DNA of 64,000 bases from Acinetobacter phage Presley. Numbering within the stretch: position 1 is the first letter of the stretch; every line of letters starts with the position of its first letter. The stretch lies in sequence record KF669658.1, one strand, 5' to 3'. Below are positions 1 through 48,484 of the stretch, in pieces. The notes beneath the pieces are model-generated. The model was not told the DNA's origin and did no database searches. It saw nothing but the letters and a program-made list of their open reading frames with translations. Made by a program: the position numbers and the translations under genes.

Positions 1-152
1 ACAGTAGGTCTTGGGGTCTGGCTTACACAAATCGGAAATACCCTCCCCCTATATCACTCTACAAAAAAGAATGCTTATTTCATGGACTACACATTACACA
101 AACGCTCACGCTAGAACTAGGCTTATATCAACGTCAACTTAGGAGATTACTC

Positions 153-1172: not shown

Positions 1173-1189
1173 CATGTGCTACGCACATG
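1173..1189. promoter_or_regulatory. 7-bp stem / 3-nt loop DNA hairpin (CATGTGC-TAC-GCACATG), candidate vRNAP-type hairpin promoter or processing site
   Basis: Perfect inverted repeat 2 nt after the stop of the 737..1171 gene; no T-run follows; the geometry matches N4 vRNAP promoter hairpins (5-7 bp stem, 3-nt loop). Confidence 0.35.
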
Positions 1190-1202
1190 GTGGTAGGGAT
1201 AA

Positions 1203-1262
1203 GGCTACTTAATAATATATAACTTATATACTTATTATATTAATATATTTATATATAGTTAT
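1203..1262. repeat. (TA)n-rich low-complexity tract
   Basis: 'taataatatataacttatatacttattatattaatatatttatatatagttatatattatag' inside a 300-bp non-coding spacer. Confidence 0.6.
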
Positions 1263-1471
1263 ATATTATAGATTCATTTTTCCTTTCCTTAATTGAACCC
1301 TACGGGTGCAGGGTATCACCATGTGCATTTCTGTCAATAGTTCAGTTACATTAACTCAACACAACAGGATGAACTAACCAATGACCATACATCTCGATAT
1401 CAACAGTATTATGAGTATCATATTAATGATATTCGCTTTAATCACAGTAACTTATTTAATTGGAGTAGATC

Positions 1472-6955: not shown

Positions 6956-7906
6956 ATGTATCAAGCTGAATTGGAAGTAATGTTCTCTAAGAAGCATGCA
7001 CATGAACATATCTATGACATGTTGCTTGAGAATCTTGAAACCATGGAAATGATTGAGCGTGGTATCAATCTATTAGAGGTATGGACTAACGTACCTGCTA
7101 AATACGATACCAAGCAACAACGCATTGATGCATTAAAGGGAATGAATATTCAGAAGATTGTAGAAGAAATCTATACCCGTATCATATCTGTTAAAGGCCA
7201 CACTGCATTAGCAAGTATGGCTTCACAGATTGGTATGGGACTAGGCTTTGCTGATACCAAACAAGGTATCACTTTAGCTGCAGAGATATTAGCTGTATTA
7301 GCTAATTCTGGATTCTTCTATATCTATCAACCATTCCCACGTGGACAACGATATGTTAAGTGTAACTTTGAGTTAGATGAAGAAACTCAAGAAATCGCTG
7401 ATCGTGCCATGTATATGCCACCAATGATAACCAAGCCTAATAAGCTTAAACATAACCGTAGTTCAGGCTACCAAACCATAAAAGGAGAATCTTTAATACT
7501 AGGTGGATCATATAAACATCATGAATATGATATCTGCTTAGATGTACTCAACATCATGAATTCTGTTCCATTGGCTATCAATGAAGAATTCCGTGAATAC
7601 TGTCTTGAAGAACCAACAAGTGAACTAGACGAGATTGAGGGTGCAGAACAAATGACTCAAATTGAGTTAATGAATGCACGTACGCAAAAGCGACTCAATT
7701 GGGAAGATCACGTCCGTAAATCTACTGCTCTATACGACCTGATGATAGAAGAAGGAAACCAATTCTATCTTACTCATAAAGTAGATACGCGAGGTCGTAT
7801 ATATTCTCAAGGCCATCATATCAACCCACAGGGTACTAGCTTTAAGAAAGCTATCCTAGATCTACATCGTAAGGAGAAAATCGATGTACCAGAAGGATTC
7901 TTCTAA
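6956..7906 (+). CDS. phage RNA polymerase II, N-terminal (small) subunit of a split T7-like RNAP
   Basis: 316-aa ORF with 'TAGGAG' SD. It is paired with 8466..9716, which carries RNAP motif C; the arrangement mirrors N4 gp15/gp16. Confidence 0.55.
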   Translation: MYQAELEVMFSKKHAHEHIYDMLLENLETMEMIERGINLLEVWTNVPAKYDTKQQRIDALKGMNIQKIVEEIYTRIISVKGHTALASMASQIGMGLGFADTKQGITLAAEILAVLANSGFFYIYQPFPRGQRYVKCNFELDEETQEIADRAMYMPPMITKPNKLKHNRSSGYQTIKGESLILGGSYKHHEYDICLDVLNIMNSVPLAINEEFREYCLEEPTSELDEIEGAEQMTQIELMNARTQKRLNWEDHVRKSTALYDLMIEEGNQFYLTHKVDTRGRIYSQGHHINPQGTSFKKAILDLHRKEKIDVPEGFF

Positions 7907-8180
7907 TGGTACGGCTGTTATTATTCATACTGAGTTATACGACCATCTCATGCACGGCAATCCATTTAGTGATGCACGCCTTGATGGTCACTGCATTATC
8001 GTAAGATTAGTAGGCCCTGCAATGATATTTGTATCATGGGCATCTACTCAGGATAGAAACATTTATCCAGAAATAACCATAAAAGATGAACCTGCTTACA
8101 TAGCTAGATATCGTTTATCTAAAAACTATGAAGCAGCATATGAGGCTTTATATGGAGCATCCAATAGTGGCAAGACTTGA
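7884..8180 (+). CDS. small protein inserted between RNAP II subunits (98 aa), paralog of the next gene
   Basis: SD 'aaggagaaaatcg'; shares 'LYDHL' and '[YF]IARYxLxxxYxAAY' motifs with 8152..8466. Confidence 0.5.
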   Translation: MYQKDSSNGTAVIIHTELYDHLMHGNPFSDARLDGHCIIVRLVGPAMIFVSWASTQDRNIYPEITIKDEPAYIARYRLSKNYEAAYEALYGASNSGKT

Positions 8181-8466
8181 TGTGTATATGAGCACTGCTT
8201 TATACGATCATCTTAAATTTAATATCTCATTAAATAAAAGTCGCAATGCTAAACATATGTACGATCTGAGGTTAGTACGCTTCTATACAGATATGGATAA
8301 TGGACAAATAGTACATTCATTTGACTTCCTTAAAGCCATAAATTATGCAGACCGTTTACCTAATATGCCTGAAATCTTTCCGCATGAGGAATTAGATTTT
8401 ATAGCTCGTTATAACTTATGCCGTGATTACATTGCGGCTTACAAATCAGTAAAAGGATTCCTTTAA
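8152..8466 (+). CDS. small protein inserted between RNAP II subunits (about 104 aa), paralog of 7884..8180
   Basis: ORF 8128..8466; the start is ambiguous (ATG at 8128, 8140, 8152 or 8188). 8152 has SD 'gagg' and gives the best N-terminal alignment to the paralog. Confidence 0.4.
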   Translation: MEHPIVARLDVYMSTALYDHLKFNISLNKSRNAKHMYDLRLVRFYTDMDNGQIVHSFDFLKAINYADRLPNMPEIFPHEELDFIARYNLCRDYIAAYKSVKGFL

Positions 8467-9716
8467 TGTTCAAGTCATATCTACCTATAGAATACTTATG
8501 CATCGATATCGCTAATGCCTTTGGCTTAGACAAAGAGTTATTTGAAGACCGTATCCAATGGGTTAAAGATCATGTTAATGAACTTGAAGAACTATTGGAT
8601 GAAGTCTCAGAAGATAAGTGTGCATATATCAAAGCTGTGTTAGCACTCCGTGCTGTACAGCGAGGTGAAGATACAGGTCATCTCATTTCACTTGATGCAA
8701 CCAATTCAGGAATTCAGATTATGTCTGCTATTACTGGATGCAGAAAGGGAGCAGAGATTACTAACCTATTACCTATTAACAAACGTTATGACGGTTATGG
8801 TGAGATCACTAATGAAATGAACGCAATCTTTAAATCACGTGGTGCTGATGAAATCAAGATCCCACGTAAAGATGCTAAAGATGCAGTAATGACATCTGGT
8901 TATGGATCACGTGCAACACCAAAAGAAATCTTTGGTGAAGGTGAAACATTAGAAGTATTTTATGAAGCTTGCTTCAATAAAGCAGAAGGTGCATTCACTC
9001 TAATGGATATCCTGATTAATGCATGGCAACCATTTGCATTAGCACATTCATGGGTATTACCTGATGGCTTCGTTACTAATATTAAAGTAATGGAGAAGAA
9101 GGAAGTACGTATCGAAGTGGATGAGCTCAACCATGCAACATTCACAACATACATTAAAGAGAATGAAGGATCTAAACGTGGTGTTAGCTTAGTGGCTAAT
9201 ACTATCCACTCAATAGATGCTTACTTACTCCGTAATATCATACGCCGTTGTAACTACAACCCTAAAATGATCAAGAACAAATTGAGTATCTTAAAACGTA
9301 CTCAAGAACTTCGTGATCGTAATGAACTAACCAAAGAAGAAGCTACTGGTAGATTGGCAGAGCACTTAGAAGTAACTGATGCTATGCACCTAATAGATAC
9401 TTCTATTCTACCTTTGGTTACAGCCAAAACAGCTAATCAGTTAGATGATTGGCACATTGCAACACTTATCCGTATCTTAACTAAAATGCTTGAATTCAGA
9501 CCATGCCAAGTATTAACAGTTCATGATGCATTCCGTTGTCACCCTAACCACGGCGATACGGTACGTTACTGGTATAAGGAAATTATGGCTGAGCTTGCTG
9601 AGTCAGAAATTCTTAACTGTATCTTATGGCAAATTACAGGGACTAATCCAAACTATGCTAAGTTAGATCCTAATCTTGCTAATGATATACGCCAAGCAAA
9701 CTACCCTATCTGTTAA
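8466..9716 (+). CDS. phage RNA polymerase II, catalytic (large) subunit of a split T7-like RNAP
   Basis: 416 aa; 'LTVHDAFRCHP' matches single-subunit RNAP motif C (HD[AS]F); TAATG coupling to the upstream gene. Confidence 0.65.
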   Translation: MFKSYLPIEYLCIDIANAFGLDKELFEDRIQWVKDHVNELEELLDEVSEDKCAYIKAVLALRAVQRGEDTGHLISLDATNSGIQIMSAITGCRKGAEITNLLPINKRYDGYGEITNEMNAIFKSRGADEIKIPRKDAKDAVMTSGYGSRATPKEIFGEGETLEVFYEACFNKAEGAFTLMDILINAWQPFALAHSWVLPDGFVTNIKVMEKKEVRIEVDELNHATFTTYIKENEGSKRGVSLVANTIHSIDAYLLRNIIRRCNYNPKMIKNKLSILKRTQELRDRNELTKEEATGRLAEHLEVTDAMHLIDTSILPLVTAKTANQLDDWHIATLIRILTKMLEFRPCQVLTVHDAFRCHPNHGDTVRYWYKEIMAELAESEILNCILWQITGTNPNYAKLDPNLANDIRQANYPIC

Positions 9717-9734
9717 TCTAATCACAAACAAATA

Positions 9735-9761
9735 AGCTACCTTCGGGTAGCTTTATTTTTT
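9735..9761 (+). terminator. intrinsic terminator (agctacc-ttcg-ggtagct + T-run)
   Basis: 7-bp stem, UUCG-type tetraloop, 'ttattttttg' following. Confidence 0.65.
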
Positions 9762-9771
9762 GAGGTATCAC

Positions 9772-10167
9772 ATGTCAGAACAAGTAACCAATGTATGTGG
9801 ATACATACTATTACCCGAAGGTAAATATAAATTTAACCAAGTAGCTAAATTACTAGAAGAACTTGGATTCCCTACCCATTTATGTGATGAAGTTAAAGGA
9901 TTAGTAAATCATAACTTCTGGAAACAGATTACTTATATTAGTTATAGCGTTGCTAACGATAGGGTGCATATTCAAACCTTACCCATTCAACAAGAATGGA
10001 AAGAAAAGATCCCTTTTACATCCCGTGGCAATCTATATATCTATGCAGATAACTACGAACAAATTATAGCAAGAGGTAATCTCATAGGTATTAAACCACC
10101 TCCATACAAAGACCCTAAGAAATACTCAAGAGACTTTGAAACAAGAGCTAAGCAATTAGGTAGATAA
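9772..10167 (+). CDS. paralog-family protein 1 (131 aa), C-terminus 'IIARGNLIGIKP'
   Basis: The track ORF starts at TTG 9760; the ATG at 9772 has SD 'tgaggtatcac'. Confidence 0.55.
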   Translation: MSEQVTNVCGYILLPEGKYKFNQVAKLLEELGFPTHLCDEVKGLVNHNFWKQITYISYSVANDRVHIQTLPIQQEWKEKIPFTSRGNLYIYADNYEQIIARGNLIGIKPPPYKDPKKYSRDFETRAKQLGR

Positions 10168-10168
10168 G

Positions 10169-10193
10169 GCACTCCGTGCCTTTTAATGGTTTA
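10169..10193 (+). promoter_or_regulatory. TCC-triloop hairpin (GGCAC-TCC-GTGCC) + TTTAATGGTTT element; terminator and/or phage-RNAP promoter
   Basis: Perfect 5-bp GC stem with a 3-nt loop followed by 'ttttaatggttt'. A near-identical cassette sits at 37269..37312. Confidence 0.45.
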
Positions 10194-10210
10194 GGACTTA
10201 GGAGTAAACC

Positions 10211-10576
10211 GTGTCAAAAGTACAAATTGTATTACTTAAATTCTTTAGGAATATTGATACAGATATCTATGCATTTGCTAGCAGTCTAGGTATTCACTTA
10301 ACAGATTGCAGAGGACAAATAAGAGGATCTAAAACAAGATACCAACTGTTTTTTATCATCATAGATGGATCAATTAAAGCTTATCTAACCCCATTAGATA
10401 AAGACCCTAAAGACTACTTAAATGAAGGTAGACAGTATACGTTTACTGAACCAGTAGTATTACCAGGTTCAAGACGTTCACTAGATAACTTCCCCGCTAA
10501 ATTAACTTTACTCGGAATACAGGTGAATTGGTCACATGGCAAAAACAATATTACAAGGGCTTCTTATAGTTCGTGA
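10211..10576 (+). CDS. paralog-family protein 2 (121 aa), GTG start, 'PAKLTLLGIQ'
   Basis: SD 'ttggagtaaacc' 6 nt before GTG. Confidence 0.5.
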   Translation: MSKVQIVLLKFFRNIDTDIYAFASSLGIHLTDCRGQIRGSKTRYQLFFIIIDGSIKAYLTPLDKDPKDYLNEGRQYTFTEPVVLPGSRRSLDNFPAKLTLLGIQVNWSHGKNNITRASYSS

Positions 10577-10934
10577 TAAAAATCTCTTTGAGATTTGGAA
10601 AATGATCACTGATTTAGATTTACCACATCAACTTCAAAAAACCGCATTAATGCATTTTGGACGTGTAAATCTTAATCCTAATGATCCAACAAAAATCACA
10701 TGCGCTTTTAGATTTAATGAAGAAATGGGAACAGCTTTACGTATTCCAATAGAACACGTAGATGTTGACCGCTACATTGAAAATATCCCTGATTGTAGTG
10801 AAACCACGCACCGTAATGGTACTAAGGTAATAACTATTAAGATCACTCATTGGGATCAAATCAGAGCACGTGAAAAACTCTTAGGCTTAAAGAAGGATGA
10901 CGACAATGATATTAGTTGGAGTATTCCTACTTGA
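10536..10934 (+). CDS. paralog-family protein 3 (132 aa), 'IRAREKLLGLK'
   Basis: SD 'aggtga'; overlaps the upstream gene by 41 nt. Confidence 0.5.
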   Translation: MAKTILQGLLIVRDKNLFEIWKMITDLDLPHQLQKTALMHFGRVNLNPNDPTKITCAFRFNEEMGTALRIPIEHVDVDRYIENIPDCSETTHRNGTKVITIKITHWDQIRAREKLLGLKKDDDNDISWSIPT

Positions 10935-12286: not shown

Positions 12287-12679
12287 ATGAAACCCGATAT
12301 ATTAGTGATTGCTGTATTTATCCTACCATCCATACCACTTAAAAACATAAGTGAATACCTATTAAATTTAGGTATACCATCTATTGCAGTTAGAAACATT
12401 ATATCTGAGATAGAAATATGGAATCTTTTAGAAGGGATAGACTCTGAAATTGCAGGTGCGGTATATGTTAGTACACGTAATTTAAATGTAGAGTTCAAAA
12501 CCAAATCTAATTTCATTCCCGGAATTATCCCCCACAGTGGTAATGGTAAAAAACCAGAAGGATGGTTATTCAAAAAGCTATTTGTAGAAGTCAATCAATT
12601 TGATGAAGCAATAGCACAAGCCAACTTAATAGCTTCCCCTACCTACAAAAATGCAGTAAATAAACGTGGACGTGGATAG
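12287..12679 (+). CDS. paralog-family protein 8 (130 aa), 'AIAQANLIASP'
   Basis: The track ORF starts at TTG 12263; the ATG at 12287 has SD 'taaggatcatatt'. Confidence 0.5.
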   Translation: MKPDILVIAVFILPSIPLKNISEYLLNLGIPSIAVRNIISEIEIWNLLEGIDSEIAGAVYVSTRNLNVEFKTKSNFIPGIIPHSGNGKKPEGWLFKKLFVEVNQFDEAIAQANLIASPTYKNAVNKRGRG

Positions 12680-12714
12680 GGGAACTCCGTTCCCTTAGTC
12701 CCTTGGAGTAATCC
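12680..12714 (+). promoter_or_regulatory. TCC-triloop hairpin (GGGAAC-TCC-GTTCCC) followed by an orphan 'cttggagtaatcc' RBS-like box
   Basis: 6-bp GC stem, 3-nt loop, no T-run. The downstream box resembles the RBS at 10199..10210 but no start codon follows it. Confidence 0.4.
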
Positions 12715-12776: not shown

Positions 12777-12923
12777 ATGTTCAAGCATTACATACTTGTC
12801 TTACTTATTCTTGTGTTGTTACTGATTGGTTTAATTGTCTATCTAGGAATAGATATAACCAATAACAACACAAATCCCGTATACAACCTATTCAGTGAGT
12901 ATTCTAATCACGGTCTAAAATAG
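12777..12923 (+). CDS. small single-pass membrane protein (48 aa; below the ORF-track cutoff)
   Basis: SD 'gagaggtagat' before ATG; translation MFKHYILVLLILVLLLIGLIVYLGID... is strongly hydrophobic. Confidence 0.35.
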   Translation: MFKHYILVLLILVLLLIGLIVYLGIDITNNNTNPVYNLFSEYSNHGLK

Positions 12924-14289: not shown

Positions 14290-14314
14290 ATGGGGCTTAG
14301 GCCCCATTCTTATT
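14290..14314 (+). terminator. intrinsic terminator (atggggc-ttag-gccccat + tcttatt)
   Basis: 7-bp GC-rich stem directly after the ATPase stop. Confidence 0.5.
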
Positions 14315-21546: not shown

Positions 21547-21571
21547 AAAGGGGCCATTAGGCCCTTTTATT
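21547..21571. terminator. bidirectional-type intrinsic terminator (aaag-gggcc-atta-ggccc-tttt)
   Basis: 5-bp GC stem flanked by an A-run and a T-run. Confidence 0.55.
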
Positions 21572-25071: not shown

Positions 25072-25098
25072 ATCCCCATTACGGGGATTTTTCTTTTA
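25072..25098 (+). terminator. intrinsic terminator (atcccc-attac-ggggat + tttttctttt)
   Basis: read directly. Confidence 0.65.
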
Positions 25099-27736: not shown

Positions 27737-27744
27737 TGCCCCTT
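27726..27744. terminator. bidirectional terminator shared by convergent genes (aaggggc-ttaat-gcccctt)
   Basis: The hairpin contains the plus-gene stop and abuts the minus-gene stop. Confidence 0.55.
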
Positions 27745-28342
27745 ATTCAATTAACATTGTAAAGTAGTAACCCGTATAAATATCTATCAACCGTGTACTA
27801 CGTCCCCAACCATATGTACCCCATTCCGGATCAGAAGTAACAAAGGTCAGTTCCTGTGTTTCTTCGTTATATTCCTCTATAGCAACATGAAACACGGGTT
27901 TATTAAATGGATCTAGTAATGCAATAAAACCAGAAAACTTCTCTACATTAGTAATCTTATAAGTACCTGTACCTAATTTGATTAGTTGTTTTACTGGTTT
28001 ATTTTTAGTGACTAAATAGGGCCCTGCAACAAGCTTATCATCGTACACATCCATAGATGGCATAGCAGAACGAAGAACACGGTTACAGTCTACAAAACCT
28101 AAACCTATATTTTCACGTGCAGACTGTGCAGATGTTGCACCAGTACCACCACGGGTAACAGGCAATGAATGACCTATCAATTTATTACTACCCGTACCTC
28201 CTGTAAGAAAATCCATAATAATACGAATATTAGTATTAAGAATACGCCCTGCTACTGGAAGGAATTCCCCCTTCTTATCATTAATAGCTTCACCAATCTC
28301 AACGTATTCAACATCAGATTGACCATCATTGAAGTGCGACAT
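27743..28342 (-). CDS. short tail-fibre-like protein (199 aa)
   Basis: 'GGTGSNKLIGHSLPVTRGGTGATSAQSARENIGLG' is the conserved N-terminal phage tail-fibre motif; SD 'aggatga'. Confidence 0.5.
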   Translation of the reverse strand: MSHFNDGQSDVEYVEIGEAINDKKGEFLPVAGRILNTNIRIIMDFLTGGTGSNKLIGHSLPVTRGGTGATSAQSARENIGLGFVDCNRVLRSAMPSMDVYDDKLVAGPYLVTKNKPVKQLIKLGTGTYKITNVEKFSGFIALLDPFNKPVFHVAIEEYNEETQELTFVTSDPEWGTYGWGRSTRLIDIYTGYYFTMLIE

Positions 28343-28685
28343 TAGTTCTCATCCTATTATAAAATTCAATTGCAGCACGATGTTTTGCATCACACTCCCC
28401 GTATTTATAAACAGTATCCGTATAACCCTTTAATACCGTTCCACCTTTCCCGTCACTGAGCAAGCTCAGACTCCGGCAAGGTTCCACTATGTTCGCGGGC
28501 ATTGGTGGAAGTAATATTCCCGTTGAGGACTGACAACCCACTGTCATCAAAACAGGTATTAAGGTAAATAGGTTCCTTAACAATCGTTTCAACTTGCTTG
28601 ATTGTAATCTCGTTACGTGTCTCACGTTCTGTTTTCCCTTGTTCATGTTTTTTAGATACATCATTCGCAATATCATTGCGCTCAA
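28326..28685 (-). CDS. o-spanin (Rz1-like outer-membrane lipoprotein), overlapping the i-spanin in another frame
   Basis: Signal-like 'KLKRLLRNLFTLIPVLMTVGC' with a lipobox-like TVGC; Pro-rich; the true start is probably internal (e.g. M14 at 28646). Confidence 0.45.
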   Translation of the reverse strand: MSAMILRMMYLKNMNKGKQNVRHVTRLQSSKLKRLLRNLFTLIPVLMTVGCQSSTGILLPPMPANIVEPCRSLSLLSDGKGGTVLKGYTDTVYKYGECDAKHRAAIEFYNRMRTNVALQ

Positions 28686-28845
28686 TTACCACCTTGATCT
28701 CTTGATCCTTCTTGGCTATCAGGTCTGATTGCAGACTACTGATAACCTCACCTCTATAAATAGCTAAGCCAGAAAAAGCTAATGAAGTGATTAAGAAGAA
28801 TCCTGCAAGGTATGGTGATAGAAACTTATACCAAGCAATAAACAT
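28453..28845 (-). CDS. i-spanin (Rz-like)
   Basis: N-terminal TM 'MFIAWYKFLSPYLAGFFLITSLAF', charged coiled-coil periplasmic part; the ATG at 28845 has a strong 'GGAGGT' SD; the longer track ORF runs antisense into the endolysin gene. Confidence 0.55.
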   Translation of the reverse strand: MFIAWYKFLSPYLAGFFLITSLAFSGLAIYRGEVISSLQSDLIAKKDQEIKVVIERNDIANDVSKKHEQGKTERETRNEITIKQVETIVKEPIYLNTCFDDSGLSVLNGNITSTNAREHSGTLPESELAQ

Positions 28846-28847
28846 GC

Positions 28848-29381
28848 TTAACCTCCAAGGTATTGATGAATATCCAAAGCAACTTGTTTGGCTACAGTCC
28901 AATAAGTGTCTTGGAATTGTTTTAATTTTTCATCATTAGAGATGAACTCTAATTCAAGGATTAAACCACCTGCATTAATATAACCGAGCTTACCACGTGC
29001 AGATTGGGACTGATCAATCCATCCATTATCACCACGAATAGGTGATCCCATAATCTTGGCTACACCTTGTGATAACTTCTGTGCAAGGACCTTATCTTTA
29101 GGTAGTGCAATAGTTTCCACACCTTTAGCAGTTTTATTGCTAGATGCATTCATGTGGAACTCAATTGCTACAGCAGAGCCTTTAATAAGCTTGATAGCTT
29201 CATTAAGGGATTGGTTATCAGAACCTACACCATCAGTACGTACGGTATAACCGTAATTACGTAGATAAGAAGCCACAGCATTACGGAACAGTACAGCTAA
29301 AGAAGCTTCGGTAACTTTACCGTTTACAGCACCCGGATCAACATTAGAATGGCCTGCAGTAATGGTCACGATCTTAGACAT
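28848..29381 (-). CDS. endolysin, N-acetylmuramoyl-L-alanine amidase (Amidase_3-like)
   Basis: 'ITAGHSNVDPGA...E' and 'IEFHMNAS' match the MurNAc-LAA zinc-amidase signature; 177 aa. Confidence 0.65.
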   Translation of the reverse strand: MSKIVTITAGHSNVDPGAVNGKVTEASLAVLFRNAVASYLRNYGYTVRTDGVGSDNQSLNEAIKLIKGSAVAIEFHMNASSNKTAKGVETIALPKDKVLAQKLSQGVAKIMGSPIRGDNGWIDQSQSARGKLGYINAGGLILELEFISNDEKLKQFQDTYWTVAKQVALDIHQYLGG

Positions 29382-29413
29382 ATTAGTTCTCTATAGAATA
29401 AACGGTAGAAGCA

Positions 29414-29441
29414 TTATCCTTAATGTTTATCCAGTAAGCAA
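29414..29441 (-). promoter_or_regulatory. candidate sigma70-type promoter for the lysis cassette (TTGCTT-16-GATAAT on the minus strand)
   Basis: Read from the reverse complement of 29382..29512; hexamer match only. Confidence 0.25.
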
Positions 29442-29512
29442 AAATAATTGAGACTAAGATAAGAATGTACTAAACTACCTTTGTTAATTTCTAACCAATA
29501 AGGGTAAACATC

Positions 29513-29728
29513 ATGGCTGGTTCAACAACACCAACTACAGTTAAAGGCATTCCGATGGATCAGATGAAGTTACTTAATGACTTCTCAAATACAATTCAAT
29601 CACGTCAATATAAAAACCAAGTAGCAGTTAAAAAACTGGTCCTATCATTTACAGCAGAAGAAGGCTTGAGCATTGAGATTGAAGAAGAACCTGCAGTAGT
29701 TACATCCCCACCTGTAGGCTCTGTATAA
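29513..29728 (+). CDS. hypothetical protein (71 aa), lone plus-strand gene between minus-strand genes
   Basis: SD 'aagggtaaacatc'; followed by the terminator at 29738. Confidence 0.4.
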   Translation: MAGSTTPTTVKGIPMDQMKLLNDFSNTIQSRQYKNQVAVKKLVLSFTAEEGLSIEIEEEPAVVTSPPVGSV

Positions 29729-29737
29729 ACTACAGAT

Positions 29738-29767
29738 AAAAAGAAGCCCCAATTAAGGGGCTTTTTT
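29738..29767. terminator. bidirectional terminator (aaaaag-aagcccc-aattaa-ggggctt-tttttt)
   Basis: 7-bp stem with A-run and T-run. Confidence 0.65.
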
Positions 29768-29777
29768 ATTTTCAAGG

Positions 29778-30452
29778 CTAAGAAGCAAATGATGCAATAT
29801 ATACAGGTAAGGTTCCCCCATTAAGGAAAGCTTTAAAATTATCATGTATTTCACCACCACGCCCCCAAGCTTTGAATTGCAATTGCAACTTACCATTTTC
29901 ATATCTACCAAATAAAGCCCCCCTTACAGCCGTACCCATAGGACCTGGGGCAAACAAACTTGGAAAACTATTCATAATAATATAGGGATTAAGACCAACA
30001 TCAACTGTTGTACCTGCAATTAATGTTTCAGCATCTAGTTGATACGCTTTTACAATTCTAGGTACATTTTTCGCAGAGTTAGCTGACCAAAGTAATTCAC
30101 CCTGTTCATCATAAACATCTAAGTAACCTGATACTTTTTGGTAGTCTTCGCCTAAAAATACAAGCTTACCTTGATTTTCTCCATACCAATACTGACCTGC
30201 AAATTCTCCACCTTCTATTGGTTTATATAGCGTTATAGTCCCGTCTGGTAATGTATTTCTTAAAGATGGGTAGCCTAGATACTTAGTTTTAATAAATGAA
30301 GGGGCCATAACTACATTACTCATAGTTGTTCCCGTGCCAACGACTGCCCCATCTATTGTTGTAATATCTTGCTCTAAAATAATCCCTAAATGTTTCATAG
30401 TGTCACTAACAATAACCTCACCTAAAACATTTCTTACTTCAAATCCTGACAT
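29778..30452 (-). CDS. hypothetical structural or fibre-associated protein (224 aa)
   Basis: ORF translationally coupled to the upstream gene. Confidence 0.5.
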   Translation of the reverse strand: MSGFEVRNVLGEVIVSDTMKHLGIILEQDITTIDGAVVGTGTTMSNVVMAPSFIKTKYLGYPSLRNTLPDGTITLYKPIEGGEFAGQYWYGENQGKLVFLGEDYQKVSGYLDVYDEQGELLWSANSAKNVPRIVKAYQLDAETLIAGTTVDVGLNPYIIMNSFPSLFAPGPMGTAVRGALFGRYENGKLQLQFKAWGRGGEIHDNFKAFLNGGTLPVYIASFAS

Positions 30453-30772
30453 TATGCATACCTATAAATATTCACATCGACATTTTGATTTCCAACAAAT
30501 TTAGATACCCTTACGGTATCATCTTTATATATTGATGCAATATGACCACCTTGTTGTTGCAATGATGGGTATTGCCCGGTATATGTTCCAACTGTTTTAC
30601 TTTTCACAATTGCAACATGTGTAGAGGGTTTAATACCTGGGTATGTGTAATCTACGGTTTTCTCATTTACAGGAAATTGAATGCTGAATGTATGAACTAA
30701 GTGTAGTTGCCTATCTGTAACATCTACAACACTCTTCCCATTTTCATCAAAACACTGTAAACCCTGCGACAT
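30452..30772 (-). CDS. hypothetical protein (106 aa)
   Basis: The track ORF begins at TTG 30784; the ATG at 30772 has SD 'ttggagttaaat'. Confidence 0.45.
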   Translation of the reverse strand: MSQGLQCFDENGKSVVDVTDRQLHLVHTFSIQFPVNEKTVDYTYPGIKPSTHVAIVKSKTVGTYTGQYPSLQQQGGHIASIYKDDTVRVSKFVGNQNVDVNIYRYA

Positions 30773-30782
30773 ATTTAACTCC

Positions 30783-30808
30783 AAAAATAAAAGGCTAGTT
30801 ACCTAGCC
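30783..30808 (-). terminator. minus-strand hairpin + T-run after the giant fibre gene (ggctag-ttac-ctagcc)
   Basis: The reverse complement gives gggctaggtaactagcc-ttttatttttgg. Confidence 0.45.
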
Positions 30809-30815
30809 CTGAATA

Positions 30816-33800
30816 TTACCATAGACCCATTCGTACCCTTAACACATTGTTATCATCGTACACAGTAATCAAACTACCTTGCATAACCATACGTGCTTTG
30901 TTTGGTTGGCTTGGATCTTTATAAGTAACCAATGTACCAAGGTTAGCAGAGATAGCAGATAAACTATCAACCTTTAATTTGGTTGCAGTAATAGAACCAT
31001 CTACAAGAAGCTCACCACCGAATCTACGCTTAACAACTACATCACCAATGTTCCAATATGTAGGGTTAGCTTCATTCTCAGATTGTTCAATCTGGAAGTA
31101 TAAAGCACCTGATTTAGCTAAACGTCCTGAACCGTTATTAGTTACAGTAAATGTACGGCGGTAACGATACCATCCACCTTGTACTTGATATAACTGTTCA
31201 GCAATTCCATATTGCCATGGTGCACTACCTGTTTGACCCCAATCATCATATACCCATAACCCTACACCCAACGGTCGATTAGGGCCATCACCAAATGCAG
31301 CAGTATATTCAATTACAATGGTATCACCCGGTCTTACCGGAATGAGGGCATTAGTATTACCAATATGATCACGACCGGATAACTGCATACCGTAACCTCC
31401 AAGTTCAGTAATATTAGCAATCATGACTGCTTTACCATTACTTAATACCGGACCATTAGGGTCAAAGTATCGATTAGGCCATAGGTTATCAGTAAGACCT
31501 AATGTCATCTTATCTGCAGAAATACTACCTGCTCTAATACGTGCAGCATCAATATAACCAGAAGTAATCTTACCTGCATCCAAAGTAGTAATCTTGGCAT
31601 TAGTAATAGACGCATCAGCGATATGTGCAGTACCAATGGTTGCATTAGCAATCATGGCTACATCAATCCAAGTACCTGCAGGATATGTAGTTCCACCAAT
31701 GGTCTGTGGACTGGTTAATACCATGAATGGTTTTTTACCATTGGTTGCAGTAGTGCCTTTACCTACATAGAAGTAATCAGCATTTACACCAAACGCACCT
31801 ACACCATCTTGGTTGTATACACCATACGAAGTAACCAATCCATTAACATCAGTCTTAACTACATATGAAGCTGCTAACCCATCTACTACACGTCCTTGTG
31901 TAACTAATGATGCAGAGTTATTACCTACATCAATTTGTAATTGAGTAACAGCCTGTGCATTGAGAGAAGCTTTATTATCTACCTGCCCTACATATACAGA
32001 TAGATCCTGTACAGCTTTAGCTTCTGCTTTCTGTCCTAAAGAGTTAAGGATATCCTTTGTAGGGCATGTCCAAACACTCCAAGTTTCACTTCCAGGATTA
32101 CCCTCAGAAAAGCGATAAGCTACTTCTGTACCATCTCCATTGGTTGCTACCTGTTGTACAGCACCACCTGACTTATCACCCCAAGGAGTAATAGTCTGTA
32201 AGTTACAGTACATAGAACTGATTAAGTTATTCACCCCAATAGTAGATGTAAGTTTAAATTCATTTACTGTTCTAAATGGATAAGTAGAACGGTAATACTC
32301 TGGTGCAAAATTATCGTAACGGGTATCTCTAATACTAACGATATTATTAATATTACTAATACTTGCATTAACGTTAGTTATTGCATTGGCATTGGTTACG
32401 ATATCACGTCCATTCTGTTTTACTTCTGCATTGAGTGTATTCAGTGCATCCGCAGTAGCAAACTTAGATTCATCAATTGATGGGGCACCTGCTAAACCAG
32501 AAGGAACACCACCAATAAGAGATAGGGGATATTTAATCCAATCATTCTGCACTGACGAAGTAAACATATGGCAGATACCAGTACCAGTAGCTGCTCCTTT
32601 ACGTGAAGTAAAGATAGGTAATCGATTATTACCCCACTTATCAAAGTAATCTCCAGTACCCCCATTAGCAATGATAGTGTTACGTAGTTGAACAACATAA
32701 TTATTGTTTGGAATAAACCATCCAATATTATCATTACCTACAAGAGTAAAATAATACTCGTTAGGGATATTATTATTAATATAGTTAGCACACGCTAACA
32801 TTGCATCTACACCTTGACCGTATGTATCAAAGATAGCAGTGTCATATAACTTACCATCAGGTCCATAAACCCAAATGGTTAGACCACGGCCCATTACACC
32901 TACCCGGCTACCTTGGCTGTCAATTAAACCAAAAGGCCCCGGACCAGCAGATGAACCATTACGGAAAGTAGAAATAATATAATCAACACGTGTAGCTAAA
33001 GTAGCTTTAACGTTATTAATAGATTGGCTATTGATAGTAATATTATTCTCAGTTTGTTCAACACGACCTGCTAGTAAACGAGTAGCATCAAACAATCCAG
33101 TAATATTACCTTCTGCAGTATTAACACGTCCTGTAAGATTTGTAAGATCAGAAGCTGTAGAAGTAATCTTACCTTCTACACGTTCAACACCTGCACGGTT
33201 TTCAGCAATAGATGCAGCAGTAGCATCTAAACGTGCCTGTGTTTCTTCTGCAGATTCAGACCAATCAGAACCAATTAAACCACGTTCTAATTTAACCTCA
33301 GATATTAGGATTTGAGTACCACTTGGCATGTTAGGCCCAAGATACATAACCAGATTGATTACATCATCTACTGCATAGCCTTTAACTGTATAACGTTTCC
33401 ATTCATTAGTTACTTTAATATAGCTACTATCAGGTTCTATTAATCTGACACCCTCAGTCATCAGGGATAATACTTCTGTACCATTATCGCCATAGGCCCA
33501 AATAGAACATGTTAGTGGTTCGCCTGCTTTAAACTTACCAGAAACACGTTGGTACATTCCTGCACCAGCGCTACCATTAATCTGCCACATAGCCTTACGA
33601 CCATTAGGAGGCCATGCGATATTAGGCCATTCTTCCTTTTTAATTAATGCAGTAAAGCCATTATTACCAATCCAAGCTCCATGGTTGTAATCATCTAATG
33701 CTGACTCCTTCAATAAATTCATATTGCCTGAGTACAGTGAAGCAGTAAGTTTGGTATTAGATAAAGCAATAGCGTTATCCACATCCTGTTTAGTTTGTAA

Positions 33801-37217: not shown

Positions 37218-37268
37218 CTGAACACCTCATTAATTCTGTTTGGATTATAGGGTGTTTTTTAATTAAGT

Positions 37269-37312
37269 GGGCATTCCTTGCCCTTTAATGGTTTTATTTA
37301 TAGGAGTAAACC
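37269..37312 (+). promoter_or_regulatory. TCC-loop hairpin (GGGCA-tTCCt-TGCCC) + TTTAATGGTTTT + 'aggagtaaacc' RBS; candidate promoter cassette for the thyA block
   Basis: Near-identical in layout to 10169..10210; sits in a divergent intergenic region, so a terminator role alone is unlikely. Confidence 0.45.
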
Positions 37313-39421: not shown

Positions 39422-41141
39422 ACAAGAAGCGCATGATAAAGCACTCGCTGCATACAAAGCTAATAGTGCAGAACGTAAAGAACTACAAGCAAAAGGTTGG
39501 GTACCGATGTGGTACACAACACAAGCATGGCAGATGTTTAAAGAACGTTATGCAGTAGATGGGGAACAAGCTGTACTTGGACGATTCAAAACAATCGCAC
39601 GTGTATTAGCTGCTTATTTACCTGTTAAGTATCAGAAAGAATATGAACAGAAATTCTTTGACTTGATGTGGAATCAAATCTTATCACCTGCTTCACCTGT
39701 GTTAGCCAATACAGGTACAGATCGTGGTATGAATGTATCTTGTTCAGGCCAATACGTAGAAGACTCTGTATGGGGATTCTATGAAGCCATGAAAGAAACA
39801 GCAATGTTATCTAAGTATGGCTTTGGGACCTCCGGTCACTTCTCTGACATTCGTTCACGTAAGTCACCTATCTCAACTGGTGGTACAGCCAATGGAGCTA
39901 AAGTTGTCATTGATGACTTCTTTACTGCAGCAGCCAAGATTAGTCATGGTGGTATGCGTAAAGGATCATTTGCAGCTTATATTGATATGGATTCAGGTGA
40001 TTATTACGAAGCACTTAACAGCTTACGTACAGATCACAAAGGTAAAAACTACGGTTGGATACTTAAAGATTCATTTATCAATAAGCTTAAAGCAGGTGAT
40101 AAAGAAGCTAACCAACGTTGGCAAGATGCATTACACGTTAAGCTATTAACAGGTAAGGGTTACTTATTCTTCCCTGATAAAGCTAACCGCCATCGTCCAC
40201 AAATGTATAAAGATCTTGGCCTTGATATTAAAGCCACGAATCTATGTACTGAAATCATGTTACATAGCAGTTCTGAATATACTTATAGCTGTATATTGTC
40301 ATCTATTAACTTATTCCATTGGGATAAGATTAAAGGTACAGATGCAATCTTTACATCTATGGTTTTCCTAGATTGCCTATGCTCAGACTTCATTGCTAAA
40401 TCAGAAGGGAAGAAAGGTCTTGAGAAGGTTCGTGAATTTACTATTAAAGGTCGCGCTGTCGGTTTGGGCACTATGGGCTTTGCTACTTATCTGCAAGATC
40501 ATATGGTTCCTTACGACAGTCTGGAAGCTTCATACTTAAACAAAGAAATGTTCAAGGCACTACATGATGAAACCCTCCGGGCTTCGCAGTGGCTTGCTCA
40601 AGAACTAGGGGAACCAGAATGGTGTAAAGGTTACGGAGTACGTAACACACACCGTACTGCCCAAGCACCGACTAAATCAACCGCTACTCTAATGGGTAGT
40701 ATGTCTGAATCAACCTCACAAGATCCGGGTTGGGTATATACACTAGGTAGCTCAGTAGGCGAACTAGAACGTATTCCACCAGTTATCTTACGACTAATGA
40801 AAGAACGCGGTGTTTATAACCAAGAAACACTAGATCGCATCATTGCTCACCTTGGCTCAGTCCAACAAGAAGACTGGTTATCAGATGAAGAGAAGTTAGT
40901 ATTCCGTAATGCATTTGAAACTGACCCTTGGGCTACATTCCGTATGGCCCGTCAACGTCAGAAGTATTTATGTCAAGGTCAATCAATTAACTTCTTCTTA
41001 GCTGAAACACCTGAATCAGAACAACAGATCTCAGATATCATGTCTGCATGTGTACTAGATGAAGAAATATTATCTCAGTATTACTTGTATACACGATCTG
41101 GTGTAACCATTAATGATGAGTGTATAGCTTGTGCTGCATAG
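39408..41141 (+). CDS. nrdA: ribonucleotide reductase large (alpha) subunit, no ATP cone
   Basis: 'NLCTEI' active-site motif, 'SCILSSINL' loop Cys, C-terminal Cys pair 'ECIACAA'. Confidence 0.7.
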   Translation: MNQFEQEAHDKALAAYKANSAERKELQAKGWVPMWYTTQAWQMFKERYAVDGEQAVLGRFKTIARVLAAYLPVKYQKEYEQKFFDLMWNQILSPASPVLANTGTDRGMNVSCSGQYVEDSVWGFYEAMKETAMLSKYGFGTSGHFSDIRSRKSPISTGGTANGAKVVIDDFFTAAAKISHGGMRKGSFAAYIDMDSGDYYEALNSLRTDHKGKNYGWILKDSFINKLKAGDKEANQRWQDALHVKLLTGKGYLFFPDKANRHRPQMYKDLGLDIKATNLCTEIMLHSSSEYTYSCILSSINLFHWDKIKGTDAIFTSMVFLDCLCSDFIAKSEGKKGLEKVREFTIKGRAVGLGTMGFATYLQDHMVPYDSLEASYLNKEMFKALHDETLRASQWLAQELGEPEWCKGYGVRNTHRTAQAPTKSTATLMGSMSESTSQDPGWVYTLGSSVGELERIPPVILRLMKERGVYNQETLDRIIAHLGSVQQEDWLSDEEKLVFRNAFETDPWATFRMARQRQKYLCQGQSINFFLAETPESEQQISDIMSACVLDEEILSQYYLYTRSGVTINDECIACAA

Positions 41142-41160: not shown

Positions 41161-41187
41161 AGGCCCCTATATGGGGCTTTTCTTTTT
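41161..41187 (+). terminator. intrinsic terminator (ggcccc-tatat-ggggct + ttttcttttt)
   Basis: read directly. Confidence 0.65.
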
Positions 41188-44922: not shown

Positions 44923-44923
44923 T

Positions 44924-44938
44924 GGGCGTTCCTCGCCC
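44924..44938 (+). promoter_or_regulatory. TCC-loop hairpin (GGGCG-tTCCt-CGCCC) upstream of 'tataggagctagtac' RBS
   Basis: Same stem/loop architecture as 37269..37283. Confidence 0.4.
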
Positions 44939-44965
44939 TCTTGCGATTTCTATAGGAGCTAGTAC

Positions 44966-48284: not shown

Positions 48285-48466
48285 TGAATAAGGCAATTAT
48301 GGTAGTGGGAGTGGTGATTGGTAGCATCATTCTCATTACTGTAGTTGCATACGTCATTTCATTAATCGTAATGGTAGTGACGTATGTACTGCCATTTGTA
48401 GTTATAGTTTTTTGTATAGGTTACGCCTCATGCCTATACAACAAACGAAAGAAAAGGGATCGATAA
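48284..48466 (+). CDS. small hydrophobic membrane protein (60 aa)
   Basis: ATGA coupling; 'IMVVGVVIGSIILITVVAYVISLIVMVVTYVLPFVVIVFCIGY'. Confidence 0.45.
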   Translation: MNKAIMVVGVVIGSIILITVVAYVISLIVMVVTYVLPFVVIVFCIGYASCLYNKRKKRDR

Positions 48467-48484
48467 GATCCCTTTGTTTATTTA
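48454..48484 (+). terminator. intrinsic terminator (aagggatc-gataa-gatccctt + tgtttattt)
   Basis: 8-bp stem whose loop contains the stop codon of the 60-aa gene. Confidence 0.6.

Follow-up and report, generated by a model that had tools for sequence, protein, structure and literature searches.

TCC-loop hairpins as candidate middle promoters in the N4-like Acinetobacter phage Presley

The early promoters P1-P3 of coliphage N4 reportedly serve its virion RNA polymerase (vRNAP) (Haynes & Rothman-Denes, 1985; Glucksmann, 1992; Davydova, 2007; Gleghorn, 2008). The N4 middle promoters, which are used by RNAPII, fall into two consensus motifs and depend on gp1 and gp2. Recognition by vRNAP requires a central purine in the template-strand loop (-11 A/G), -10G, -8G and a +1C located 11 nt from the loop centre (PMC4496689), whereas the RNAPII middle promoters of N4 are AT-rich, have no hairpin and start preferentially with T (PMC9163698, PMC4496689). 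Outside N4, only four middle promoters of N4-like phages have been mapped, all of them in Pseudomonas phage LUZ7, where ONT-cappable-seq identified four middle-stage start sites (Putzeys et al., 2022; PMC9163698). Each is preceded, at about 15 bp from a start at G, by a GC-rich hairpin (6 bp or more in the stem, 3-4 nt in the loop), and the reads of orf64-69 begin at one TSS (PMC9163698). For Pectobacterium phage CB1 (KY514264), predicted 'N4 early-type' stem-loop promoters have been annotated (Buttimer et al., 2018; PMC6027278). DNA-hairpin promoters of N4-like phages are a known kind of signal, of which the elements of Acinetobacter phage Presley described here are a probable further instance.

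A family of TCC-loop hairpins in the Presley window

We analysed a stretch of 64,000 nucleotides of the Presley genome (KF669658.1), hereafter the window, position 1 of which is the left terminus. The initial annotation had described two copies of a hairpin-bearing element, but at least four intergenic hairpins with a TCC loop core were found on the + strand, at positions 10166, 37269, 44924 and 12680 (members 1 to 4, the first two also referred to as copies 1 and 2). All four lie downstream of the RNAPII genes (6956-9716, with products encoded at 6956-7906 and 8466-9716), at 10.2-44.9 kb, and all four present GGA in the template-strand loop, as had been pointed out for the first copy. When TCC-core hairpins with a stem of at least 5 bp were counted over the 64-kb window, five were found on the + strand and none on the - strand, and four of the five were intergenic, with intergenic DNA making up 5.1% of the window. 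Shuffled sequences averaged 0.23 such hairpins and never held more than 2, so that 0 of 300 shuffles reached 5. As a calibration, the same hairpin scan on N4 recovered exactly the proven vRNAP promoters P1-P3. We also used a covariance model, R1, built from 37 hairpins that all come from phages other than Presley, whose top four matches in the window began at 10164, 12677, 37266 and 44921, all on the + strand. R1 scored N4 P3 at 21.9 bits, on a par with the window members; both the scan and the model thus support the promoter option and the analogy to N4 that had been put forward for the two copies.

In copy 1, the hairpin AAGGCAC-TCC-GTGCCTT occupies positions 10166..10182 of the + strand (7-bp stem, 3-nt loop, centre C10174), with GGCAC at 10168-10172, TCC at 10173-10175 and GTGCC at 10176-10180 as its core. 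The initial annotation had placed its start 1 nt too late and given it a 5-bp stem, while the sequence that it described is present at both sites. The preceding ORF ends in a TAA stop (10165-10167), which the 5' arm overlaps. On the same strand follow TTTAATGGTTT at 10182-10192, which includes a T-rich spacer and predicted initiation region, TTAATGGTTT, at 10183..10192, and the Shine-Dalgarno AGGAGTAAACC at 10200-10210 before a GTG start at 10211, which opens a 121-aa ORF of unassigned function. The template-strand DNA fold of this member is -6.4 kcal/mol (z -3.6), and it is the best R1 match in the window (10164-10191, 27.5 bits, E 1.2e-5).

Copy 2, GGGCA-TTCCT-TGCCC, is located at 37269..37283 of the + strand (arms GGGCA at 37269-37273 and TGCCC at 37279-37283, core centre C37276). 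Its 5-bp stem encloses the 5-nt loop TTCCT, so that the TCC triloop attributed to both copies holds for copy 1 and becomes a TCC core within a larger loop in copy 2. TTTAATGGTTT follows at 37284-37294, and AGGAGTAAACC (Shine-Dalgarno) at 37302-37312 precedes the ATG (37313) of the thymidylate synthase gene, downstream of which are the genes of the RNR small and large subunits. The element sits in a 95-nt gap between this + strand gene and a divergent 2133-aa ORF (- strand, start at 37217). Its template-strand DNA fold is -6.6 kcal/mol (z -2.9), and R1 matches it at 37266-37293 (18.6 bits, E 0.006).

The two look-alike elements of about 45 nt are confirmed. They are identical at 37 of 50 nt in an ungapped register and have the same distance, 37 nt, from the centre C of the TCC core to the start codon. 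Exact occurrences of TTTAATGGTTT and AGGAGTAAACC, each an 11-mer, are confined to copies 1 and 2 in the window. Leaving aside an unrelated 23-nt exact repeat, no other pair of places in the window shares two identical 11-mers at a spacing of 12-30 nt, and any such pair turned up in 1 of 40 dinucleotide shuffles. The ribosome-binding site had been considered a part of the conserved cassette; however, AGGAGTAAACC is the general strong Shine-Dalgarno context of this phage and no independent motif, AGGAG plus 5-6 nt preceding the start codon in 13 of 77 Presley starts. That context would also fit a resemblance by chance, with unrelated small hairpins preceding two AT-rich leaders that share an optimal ribosome-binding site, and in a sequence of 64 kb a single 11-mer often recurs (1701 identical pairs, vs. 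about 960 in shuffles). Such a coincidence is hardly credible, given that co-located double 11-mers are almost absent from the shuffles, that five hairpins stand against 0.23 expected with a complete strand bias, that the externally built R1 finds the sites, and that conservation is seen at three syntenic positions across phages. The shuffles, the R1 matches and the enrichment at gp44-like loci presented below effectively refute it, in agreement with the original judgement that the resemblance is unlikely to be accidental. The data show that the copy 1 and copy 2 elements are real, non-random and specific to one strand, with their position and design conserved in many phages.

Member 3, GGGCG-TTCCT-CGCCC, occupies 44924-44938 of the + strand and is followed by tcttgcGAtt, to 44948. 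It lies between a gp43-like ORF (stop at 44922) and a gp44-like ORF (ATG at 44966), with a DNA fold of -7.0 kcal/mol (z -3.75) and an R1 match of 17.9 bits (E 0.0095); R1 aligns members 2 and 3 as 6 pairs with one mismatch. Member 4 is less certain. Its hairpin, GGGAAC-TCC-GTTCCC (12680..12694, + strand; 6-bp stem, 3-nt loop), begins directly after a TAG stop (12677-12679), and an unlisted membrane-like ORF of 48 aa (12777-12923) follows 90 nt downstream. It is matched by R1 at 12677-12704 (21.9 bits, E 5.8e-4); its DNA fold is weak (-4.7 kcal/mol, z -0.5) and G is absent at +13/+14 from the loop centre. Two possible intragenic members were also observed on the + strand. One, in the RNR large-subunit ORF at 39825..39839, reads GGGACC-TCC-GGTCAC with one mismatch and is followed by ttctctGA (R1 match 39822-39849, 17.5 bits, E 0.013). 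The other, AGCAC-TCC-GTGCT at 8642..8654 in the RNAPII large-subunit ORF, has CGA at +13..+15 (R1 match 8638-8665, 15.5 bits, E 0.05) and could be a chance occurrence.

Recurrence in N4-like phages and the early TAC-loop class

Since a 1-kb DNA search around copy 1 against the phage collection gave no match, relatives were reached through proteins; the nearest are Acinetobacter phages, with about 53% identity in the RNAPII large subunit. Thymidylate synthase as an anchor gave mostly unrelated phages (L007-L024), and those were excluded. Scanning the genome and N4-like relatives, as the initial annotation had suggested, revealed the further window members and a recurrence of the TCC hairpin at three syntenic sites. 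One follows the gene of the RNAPII large subunit, another heads the second rightward block, and the third precedes the gp44-like gene. Among these phages, which span 33-61% GC, the loop is invariant and the stems are freely variable. Because the hairpin sets used for the covariation count had been selected as hairpins, their percentage of paired positions is true by construction, and we therefore relied on enrichment instead. Upstream of gp44-like genes, a TCC triloop hairpin was present in 25 of 80 phage loci, an enrichment of about 70-fold: the density there was 2.24 hairpins per kb, whereas the remainder of that strand had 0.031 per kb and the opposite orientation 0.008 per kb. The stems at these loci are wholly different between phages, and further gp44-like loci carry TCCG or TTCC(C) loops. 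At divergent junctions, surveyed at block level, a TCC-loop hairpin was found in 7 of 9 cases, including At2, CB1 and LUZ7. Downstream of the RNAPII large-subunit gene, the hairpin is conserved within Presley's own lineage. Our literature search retrieved no paper generalising the TCC-loop class beyond LUZ7.

On the + strand of LUZ7, exactly four TCC-loop hairpins are GC-rich and have 6 bp or more in the stem (8238, 9521, 35252 and 39354), each with a G at +14 from the loop centre; a fifth TCC-loop hairpin, less GC-rich, lies inside coding sequence at 10925. The hairpin at 39354 (GCCGCT-tcc-AGCGGC-tctttcGatt) is directly upstream of orf64. We infer that the four mapped middle promoters of LUZ7 are its four TCC hairpins.

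Upstream of the RNAPII genes, the scan of the window found no TCC hairpin. The early-region gap carries two TAC-loop hairpins on the + strand, CATGTGC-tac-GCACATG at 1173-1189 and ACCC-tac-GGGT at 1297-1307 (DNA fold for 1173..1307, -6.2 kcal/mol, z -3.7), which are candidate early (vRNAP) promoters. In LUZ7, TAC-loop hairpins are found upstream of early genes at 792, 3663 and 3695, with a tandem pair 32 nt apart before Drc. GC-tac-GC elements are spread over the early regions of At2, XC38 and L268 and also occur about 85 nt from the left end, and CB1 has early ATA-loop hairpins plus TCC hairpins. A universal rule in which a TCC loop denotes middle and a TAC loop early promoters was rejected, because N4 vRNAP uses TCC, At2, XC38 and CB1 each carry one early-region TCC hairpin, and the At2 middle region has mostly TTC loops. 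All that remains of the loop rule is that, within Presley's lineage, each genome has two classes.

Terminator, RNA-level and host-promoter readings

An intrinsic terminator (8-bp stem, UUCG loop and T-run, 9734..9753, + strand) directly follows the RNAPII large-subunit gene and closes the early unit; member 1 comes about 430 nt later. Its RNA fold of -14.1 kcal/mol has a z of -5.2, vs. -0.4 to -1.5 for the TCC hairpins, which are unremarkable in their context, and a terminator scan scored neither copy 1 nor copy 2. These values bear on the proposal that the hairpins are weak intrinsic terminators, or UCC-loop sites of RNA processing, stability or protein binding in read-through transcripts. 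Three of the four members start 0-2 nt from an upstream stop codon, TTTT follows copy 1, XC38 and L268 have a T-run about 10 nt past the hairpin, and strand-specific conservation of the loop would be expected equally of an RNA element; in LUZ7, moreover, read-through transcription is extensive (PMC9163698). Nevertheless, we consider this proposal improbable. Copy 2 lies between divergent genes and therefore cannot be a terminator, and its counterparts in At2, CB1, LUZ7, L212, L221 and L264 likewise head blocks with no co-directional gene upstream. The T-run is absent at 12680 and 44924, and neither the conserved +13/+14 G nor the fixed distance to the start codon would serve a terminator. In LUZ7, a TSS and not just 3' ends is located upstream of orf64 (PMC9163698). 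Termination as the function common to both copies, one of the options in the initial annotation, was consequently abandoned.

Neither copy 1 nor copy 2 showed a + strand match to sigma-70 -35/-10 hexamers at 16-18 nt spacing, which rules out a sigma-70 host promoter of the N4 late class at both sites. A known structured RNA family was also ruled out, Rfam giving no match that reached the gathering score across the whole window.

The reading polymerase and comparison with N4, CB1 and LUZ7

A G is present at +14 from the loop centre in copy 1, copy 2, the 44924 hairpin and all four LUZ7 hairpins, and is missing at 12680. A pyrimidine at +13 followed by G at +14 is common to copy 1 and the hairpins of LUZ7, At2, CB1, L001-L003 and L268, and across N4-like phages a G is usually found at a distance of 13-14 nt from the centre of the loop. 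At +11, copies 1 and 2 have A, the 44924 hairpin has T and 12680 has G. From the sequence we infer promoter activity, the start nucleotide and the reading polymerase. The predicted starts are G10188 (or G10189) in copy 1 and G37290 in copy 2, each with a 23-nt leader, and G44945 in member 3.

We lean towards considering the members ssDNA-hairpin 'middle' promoters of the LUZ7 type, most likely read by the heterodimeric RNAPII, because they lie downstream of the RNAPII genes, head middle-type operons and mirror the LUZ7 hairpins. Such a promoter would consist of a 5-7 bp stem, a TCC-core loop, a pyrimidine/T-rich spacer of 5-6 nt and, at a distance of about 14 nt from the loop centre, a G. The template-strand hairpin would be extruded with the help of negative supercoiling and/or an ssDNA-binding cofactor, and a phage-encoded T7-like RNA polymerase would recognise the stem-loop with its GGA loop and initiate downstream, most likely at the three G positions given above. 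The resulting leader would be about 21-23 nt long and contain a strong Shine-Dalgarno. The units headed in this way would be the genes after the early terminator (unassigned), the thymidylate synthase/RNR block and the gp44-like/SSB block.

The main rival to RNAPII as the reader is the injected vRNAP, for which the hairpins would be promoters like N4 P1-P3 scattered along the genome; the 37-kb and 45-kb copies would then fire late only because that DNA enters late. Copy 1 indeed has the N4 P2/P3 design (7-bp AAG...CTT stem, TCC loop, closing C-G, TT spacer), and the GGA template loop, with the -11 purine and -10G in all four members, provides the N4 -11G and -10G contacts (PMC4496689). N4-proper relatives have every TCC hairpin upstream of the RNAPII genes, At2 (817) and XC38 (708) bear 'TCC + TTTAATGA' of the same design in the early region, and the 'middle'/RNAPII assignment in LUZ7 derives solely from timing and not from transcription in vitro (PMC9163698). 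The R1 score of N4 P3, which equals that of window members, also speaks for vRNAP. We nonetheless regard reading by vRNAP as rather unlikely. Upstream of the RNAPII genes, Presley and LUZ7 have the TAC class and no TCC, and in the lineage genomes examined the first promoter, about 85 nt from the left end, has a TAC, ATA or TTC loop, never TCC. The template loops of the CB1 ATA-loop and TCC-loop hairpins have no base in common, which argues for two readers, and with a strong early terminator 430 nt before copy 1, a restart by the same enzyme makes little sense. The LUZ7 hairpins at 8238 and 9521 would be 'middle' even though both fall in the first 10 kb. N4's -8G and its +1C (RNA G) at 11 nt are both lacking: template -8 is A in copy 1 (coding T) and G in N4, and the conserved G of Presley stands at +14 instead. 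The N4 loop-reading residues K114 and R119 appear not to be conserved in the vRNAP of Presley, nor in those of LUZ7 and CB1, an observation that is tentative at an alignment identity of about 20%. Finally, only about four vRNAP molecules are injected per virion (PMC4496689).

More tentatively than for Presley itself, we suggest that in non-N4 Schitoviridae the invariant TCC-loop hairpin with a G about 14 nt downstream may represent middle promoters read by RNAPII at three conserved positions, the same architecture being read by vRNAP in N4. If so, a hairpin-promoter design would have passed between two different phage RNA polymerases in evolution, and middle promoters, whose identification has been described as very difficult, could be predicted by a simple rule across hundreds of N4-like genomes. 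The recurrence of the TCC loop is a testable, sequence-level rule for annotating them, and it poses the question of which phage polymerase reads a signal that belongs to the virion enzyme in N4. In Presley, it marks the probable start points of the middle units and sets them apart from the TAC-loop class of the early region. As compact, orthogonal promoter parts for single-subunit polymerases, the elements have modest practical value.

Compared to N4 P1-P3, the Presley hairpins share a 5-7 bp stem and a 3-nt loop, members 2 and 3 only loosely so, as well as the closing C-G pair and the T-rich spacer. With P2/P3 they share the coding loop TCC, i.e. GGA with a central purine on the template, and copy 1 the architecture AAGnnnC-TCC-GnnnCTT-TT. 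Unlike the N4 vRNAP promoters, which lie in the leftmost genome, the Presley members are not upstream of early/RNAPII genes. The scan found no TCC hairpin in the N4 middle region, although the N4 middle promoters resemble the Presley elements in serving replication and nucleotide-metabolism genes, and TTTAA in copies 1 and 2 superficially resembles the AT-rich start region of N4. BLAST found no homologues of N4 gp1, N4 gp2 or LUZ7 Drc in the window. The only likeness returned by the BLAST for cofactors was that of Presley ORF1 to At2 ORF1 and LUZ7 gp01.

CB1 shares the synteny of Presley. Its annotated promoters have ATA loops, lie in the early region and correspond to the Presley TAC class (1173, 1297) and not to the TCC family; unannotated TCC/TTCC hairpins are located at 2934, 10964 and 37435, the last at the position of copy 2.

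LUZ7 differs from Presley in host lineage. The Presley stems are less GC-rich and shorter (copy 1, 7 bp with 4 G-C pairs). Copy 1 and 12680 fit the LUZ7 hairpin dimensions (7 bp and 6 bp, respectively, with a 3-nt loop), whereas members 2 and 3, with a 5-bp stem and the 5-nt TTCCT loop, fall outside them, and copies 1 and 2 have TAATGG as their initiation context where LUZ7 has YGA. In both phages, the rightward middle genes have a coding-strand hairpin with a TCC loop, followed after about 14-15 nt by a G (in Presley, not at 12680), and the early region has a separate TAC-loop class. The sites also match, 10166 corresponding to 8238/9521 of LUZ7, 37269 to 35252 and 44924 to 39354.

TCC-loop hairpins in the Presley genome

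The two elements singled out in the initial annotation were both present as described, with coordinates displaced by 1 nt. The stem of copy 1 reaches 7 bp (AAGGCAC-TCC-GTGCCTT, 10166-10182), copy 2 reads GGGCA-TTCCT-TGCCC (37269-37283), and in ungapped register their 50-mers are identical at 37 of 50 positions, with the start codon 37 nt from the loop-centre C in each. The 11-mers common to both occur at those two sites alone in the window and, an unrelated exact 23-nt direct repeat aside, no other pair in the window has two co-located identical 11-mers, an arrangement almost absent from shuffles. That repeat (TTATCAAATGCATTAGTGATAGA; 36112-36134 and 51325-51347) has unrelated flanks and falls within two minus-strand genes, a 2133-aa ORF and the gene of the virion RNA polymerase (vRNAP). 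The ribosome-binding site, counted earlier as a component of the cassette, is just the usual strong Shine-Dalgarno context of this phage (AGGAG plus 5-6 nt, 13 of 77 starts).

Although both copies are real, they are members of a family larger than the pair proposed. Five plus-strand hairpins carry a TCC loop core (8642, 10166, 12680, 37269 and 44924) and the minus strand of the window none; shuffles gave an expectation of 0.23 per strand and reached five in 0 of 300. Four of the five are intergenic, in a window with 5% intergenic DNA and a GC content of 37.7%. A covariance model built from 37 hairpins of other phages, leaving out window and N4 sequences, found its best window match at 10164-10191 (27.5 bits, E 1e-5), the remaining top-four matches at 12677-12704, 37266-37293 and 44921-44948, and next the intragenic candidates at 39822 and 8638, all six on the plus strand. 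These last two TCC-loop hairpins lie in the RNR large-subunit ORF (39825-39839, E 0.013) and in the large-subunit ORF of the phage heterodimeric RNA polymerase, RNAPII (8642-8654, E 0.05); each has GA at +14/+15 from the loop centre, and they could be internal promoters or chance matches. On the template DNA strand, the fold energies of 10166, 37269 and 44924 lie between -6.4 and -7.0 kcal/mol (z between -2.9 and -3.75), and the fold of 12680 is weaker. In the 270-nt gap 3' of the 12680 hairpin there is also an unlisted 48-aa ORF (MFKHYILVLLILVLLLIGLIVYLGIDITNNNTNPVYNLFSEYSNHGLK; 12777-12923, plus strand), apparently encoding a small membrane protein.

Of the functions first offered, promoter was right in kind and terminator is very unlikely as the shared one: no gene running in the same direction lies upstream of copy 2 or its counterparts, members 12680 and 44924 lack T-runs, and terminator and sigma-70 scans were negative at copies 1 and 2. 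An RNA-level element is likewise very unlikely, the RNA folds being ordinary in context, unlike that of the true terminator at 9734, and Rfam returned no family match. Hairpins resembling classic terminators, with loops of four or five nt and T-runs, are spread along both strands: 9734-9753, which closes the early unit, 14290-14307, 21551-21564, 25072-25088, 41163-41177 and 48455-48473 (with a T-rich stretch after it on either strand) on the plus strand, and 27744, 30808, 50175 and 60843 on the minus strand. The plus-strand ORF 9760-10167 has a mechanical TTG start at 9760 inside the T-run of the 9734 terminator; translation more probably begins at 9772, at an in-frame ATG with GAGG ahead of it.

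Recurrence in related phages

A 1-kb DNA query around copy 1 matched nothing in the phage collection, and the closest annotated relatives by RNAPII-large protein are Acinetobacter phages XC38, At2 and nACB1 (~53% identity). Gene order is that of At2, CB1 and the Pseudomonas phage LUZ7: a rightward early/middle block with two N4-type RNAPII subunit genes (6956-7906 and 8466-9716, plus strand), a leftward tail/lysis block (27743-37217, minus strand), a second rightward block headed by thymidylate synthase (from 37313, plus strand) and the leftward vRNAP gene (50325-60803, minus strand, 3492 aa).

Scanning the genome and its N4-like relatives, as the initial annotation had suggested, revealed that TCC hairpins recur at three syntenic positions, a conservation that appears to be undescribed in the literature searched. 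At the position of copy 1, 3' of RNAPII-large, a TCC hairpin is found at +21 to +1500 in the lineage of the window (41-54% identity, LUZ7 and CB1-like phages included), whereas N4-proper relatives have 3-6 upstream of the RNAPII genes and 0 downstream. At the position of copy 2, where the second rightward block begins, a TCC-loop hairpin is present in 7 of 9 divergent junctions compared at block level: At2 (GGCAG-tcc-CTGCC), CB1 (GGGCAG-ttcc-CTGCCC), LUZ7 (GCCCCC-tcc-GGGGGC), the window, and loci L264, L221 and L212. The third position precedes gp44-like genes (in the window, the one that follows the 44924 hairpin) and has a TCC-triloop hairpin within 140 nt in 25 of 80 diverse phage loci, and further ones carry TCCG or TTCC(C) loops; density there reaches 2.24 per kb, compared with 0.031 over the rest of that strand and 0.008 in the reverse orientation. 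In these hairpins the loop is invariant and followed by a ttcttyGA-like sequence, whereas the stems are wholly different (CCGCCC, AGTGTGC, GGGGCC, GCGCTT and others). Nearly all conserved hairpins have a pyrimidine at +13 and G at +14 (G10188, G37290 and G44945 in the window).

A second hairpin lies ~10-30 nt after the RNAPII-large TCC hairpin in loci L001 (7972) and L002 (7745), CB1 (10964) and LUZ7 (8238). In CB1-like phages it is GACGC-tttc-GCGTC; in LUZ7 it is a full terminator at 8273. The candidate promoter thus directly faces a hairpin or terminator in these phages. Through the middle regions of the Acinetobacter relatives runs a succession of TTC-loop hairpins with a tGtGtGGTT-like sequence after them (At2 9643, 10674, 14534, 16165 and 46245; XC38 10166, 11832 and 14936; the metagenomic closest relative, L268, 11119, 14670 and 15739). 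Since the window has no comparable series, the central loop base seems to drift between lineages.

Early-region hairpins and the left terminus

Ahead of ORF 1472-1726, a gap of 300 nt in the early region contains two plus-strand TAC-loop hairpins, CATGTGC-tac-GCACATG (1173-1189), whose template DNA fold is comparable to those of the TCC hairpins, and ACCC-tac-GGGT (1297-1307). They are candidate vRNAP early promoters, as their loop is identical to that of LUZ7 hairpins before early genes. ONT-cappable-seq of LUZ7 mapped nine early start sites, most with a hairpin (stem of at least 4 bp, conserved 3-nt loop) and a G start 13-14 nt from its centre, including two tandem strong starts 33 nt apart before Drc (PMC9163698). 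In its genome we found TAC-loop hairpins at 792 and 3663/3695, the latter two separated by 32 nt and immediately preceding Drc.

Window nt 1-150 can be aligned to the left termini of At2, XC38 and CB1, with a poly-C tract and GAAAAAGGATTCTTACT in common, so position 1 is essentially the left genome end. Within 35-125 (plus strand), the poly-C tract 'ccctccccctat' and an A-run/gaatgcttat motif are common to At2, XC38 and CB1; LUZ7 and N4 also have a poly-C tract near the left terminus. The same stretch contains 'GCtcacGCtagaactagg', similar to 'GCtacGCtagaactggg' at At2 874, possibly a first early promoter with minimal stem. At2, XC38 and L268 repeat a GC-tac-GC-tttaaRtGG element through the early region, including ~85 nt from the left terminus, in the DNA that enters the cell first. 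A lone early-region TCC hairpin stands in tandem upstream of one GC-tac-GC element in At2 (817) and XC38 (708). Position 1 of L268 falls within the early TCC hairpin (ac-tcc-GTACAGT), which points to a break in the assembly at this hairpin or close to it.

Polymerase and likeness to LUZ7 and N4 promoters

LUZ7 has four middle start sites, at a G ~15 bp downstream of GC-rich hairpins with stems of at least 6 bp and loops of 3-4 nt, and one TSS serves as common start of the orf64-69 reads (PMC9163698). In LUZ7 the TCC-loop hairpins that are GC-rich, lie on the plus strand and have a stem of 6 bp or more number exactly four (8238, 9521, 35252 and 39354), each with G at +14, and 39354 is directly upstream of orf64; a fifth, less GC-rich, lies within coding sequence (10925). 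We infer that these hairpins are the four middle promoters, with which they agree in number, in stem length, in geometry and in the TSS of orf64.

Sequence alone is insufficient to decide which polymerase reads the TCC hairpins, since they belong to the same structural family as N4 vRNAP promoters and the covariance model scores N4 P3 at 21.9 bits. RNAPII appears the somewhat more likely reader, because neither the window nor LUZ7 has a TCC hairpin ahead of the RNAPII genes, where the TAC class stands instead; early regions of At2, XC38 and L268 repeat GC-tac-GC, the single early TCC hairpin of At2 and XC38 being in tandem with one; the ATA- and TCC-loop hairpins of CB1 have no template-loop base in common, implying two readers; the early unit ends at a strong terminator 430 nt ahead of copy 1; and, in a tentative alignment, the residues K114 and R119, with which N4 vRNAP reads the loop, are missing from the vRNAPs of the window, LUZ7 and CB1. 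Reading by vRNAP, which we consider less likely, would fit a design near-identical to N4 P2/P3 and At2 817; timing is the sole ground of the LUZ7 middle assignment, and distal promoters could fire late if the DNA enters in stages.

In N4, the same simple scan over 45 kb recovered the three experimentally defined vRNAP promoters, P1 (GTTGC-ttc-GCAAC), P2 (AAGAAGC-tcc-GCTTCTT-ttGG) and P3 (AAGCTGC-tcc-GCAGCTT-ttGG), with no further TCC- or TTC-loop hairpin on that strand. N4 likewise has no TCC hairpin upstream of its gp44-like gene. Copy 1 resembles P2/P3 in its outer AAG...CTT stem, TCC loop, closing C-G pair and TT spacer. The window elements have -11G and -10G of the N4 promoters, but not -8G, G at +11 or the left-end location. 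The elements are real and, judged from their sequence, probably best filed with the hairpin promoters of N4 (read by vRNAP) and of LUZ7 (the middle class); the finding deserves follow-up, and it extends the known biology of these systems and overturns none of it.
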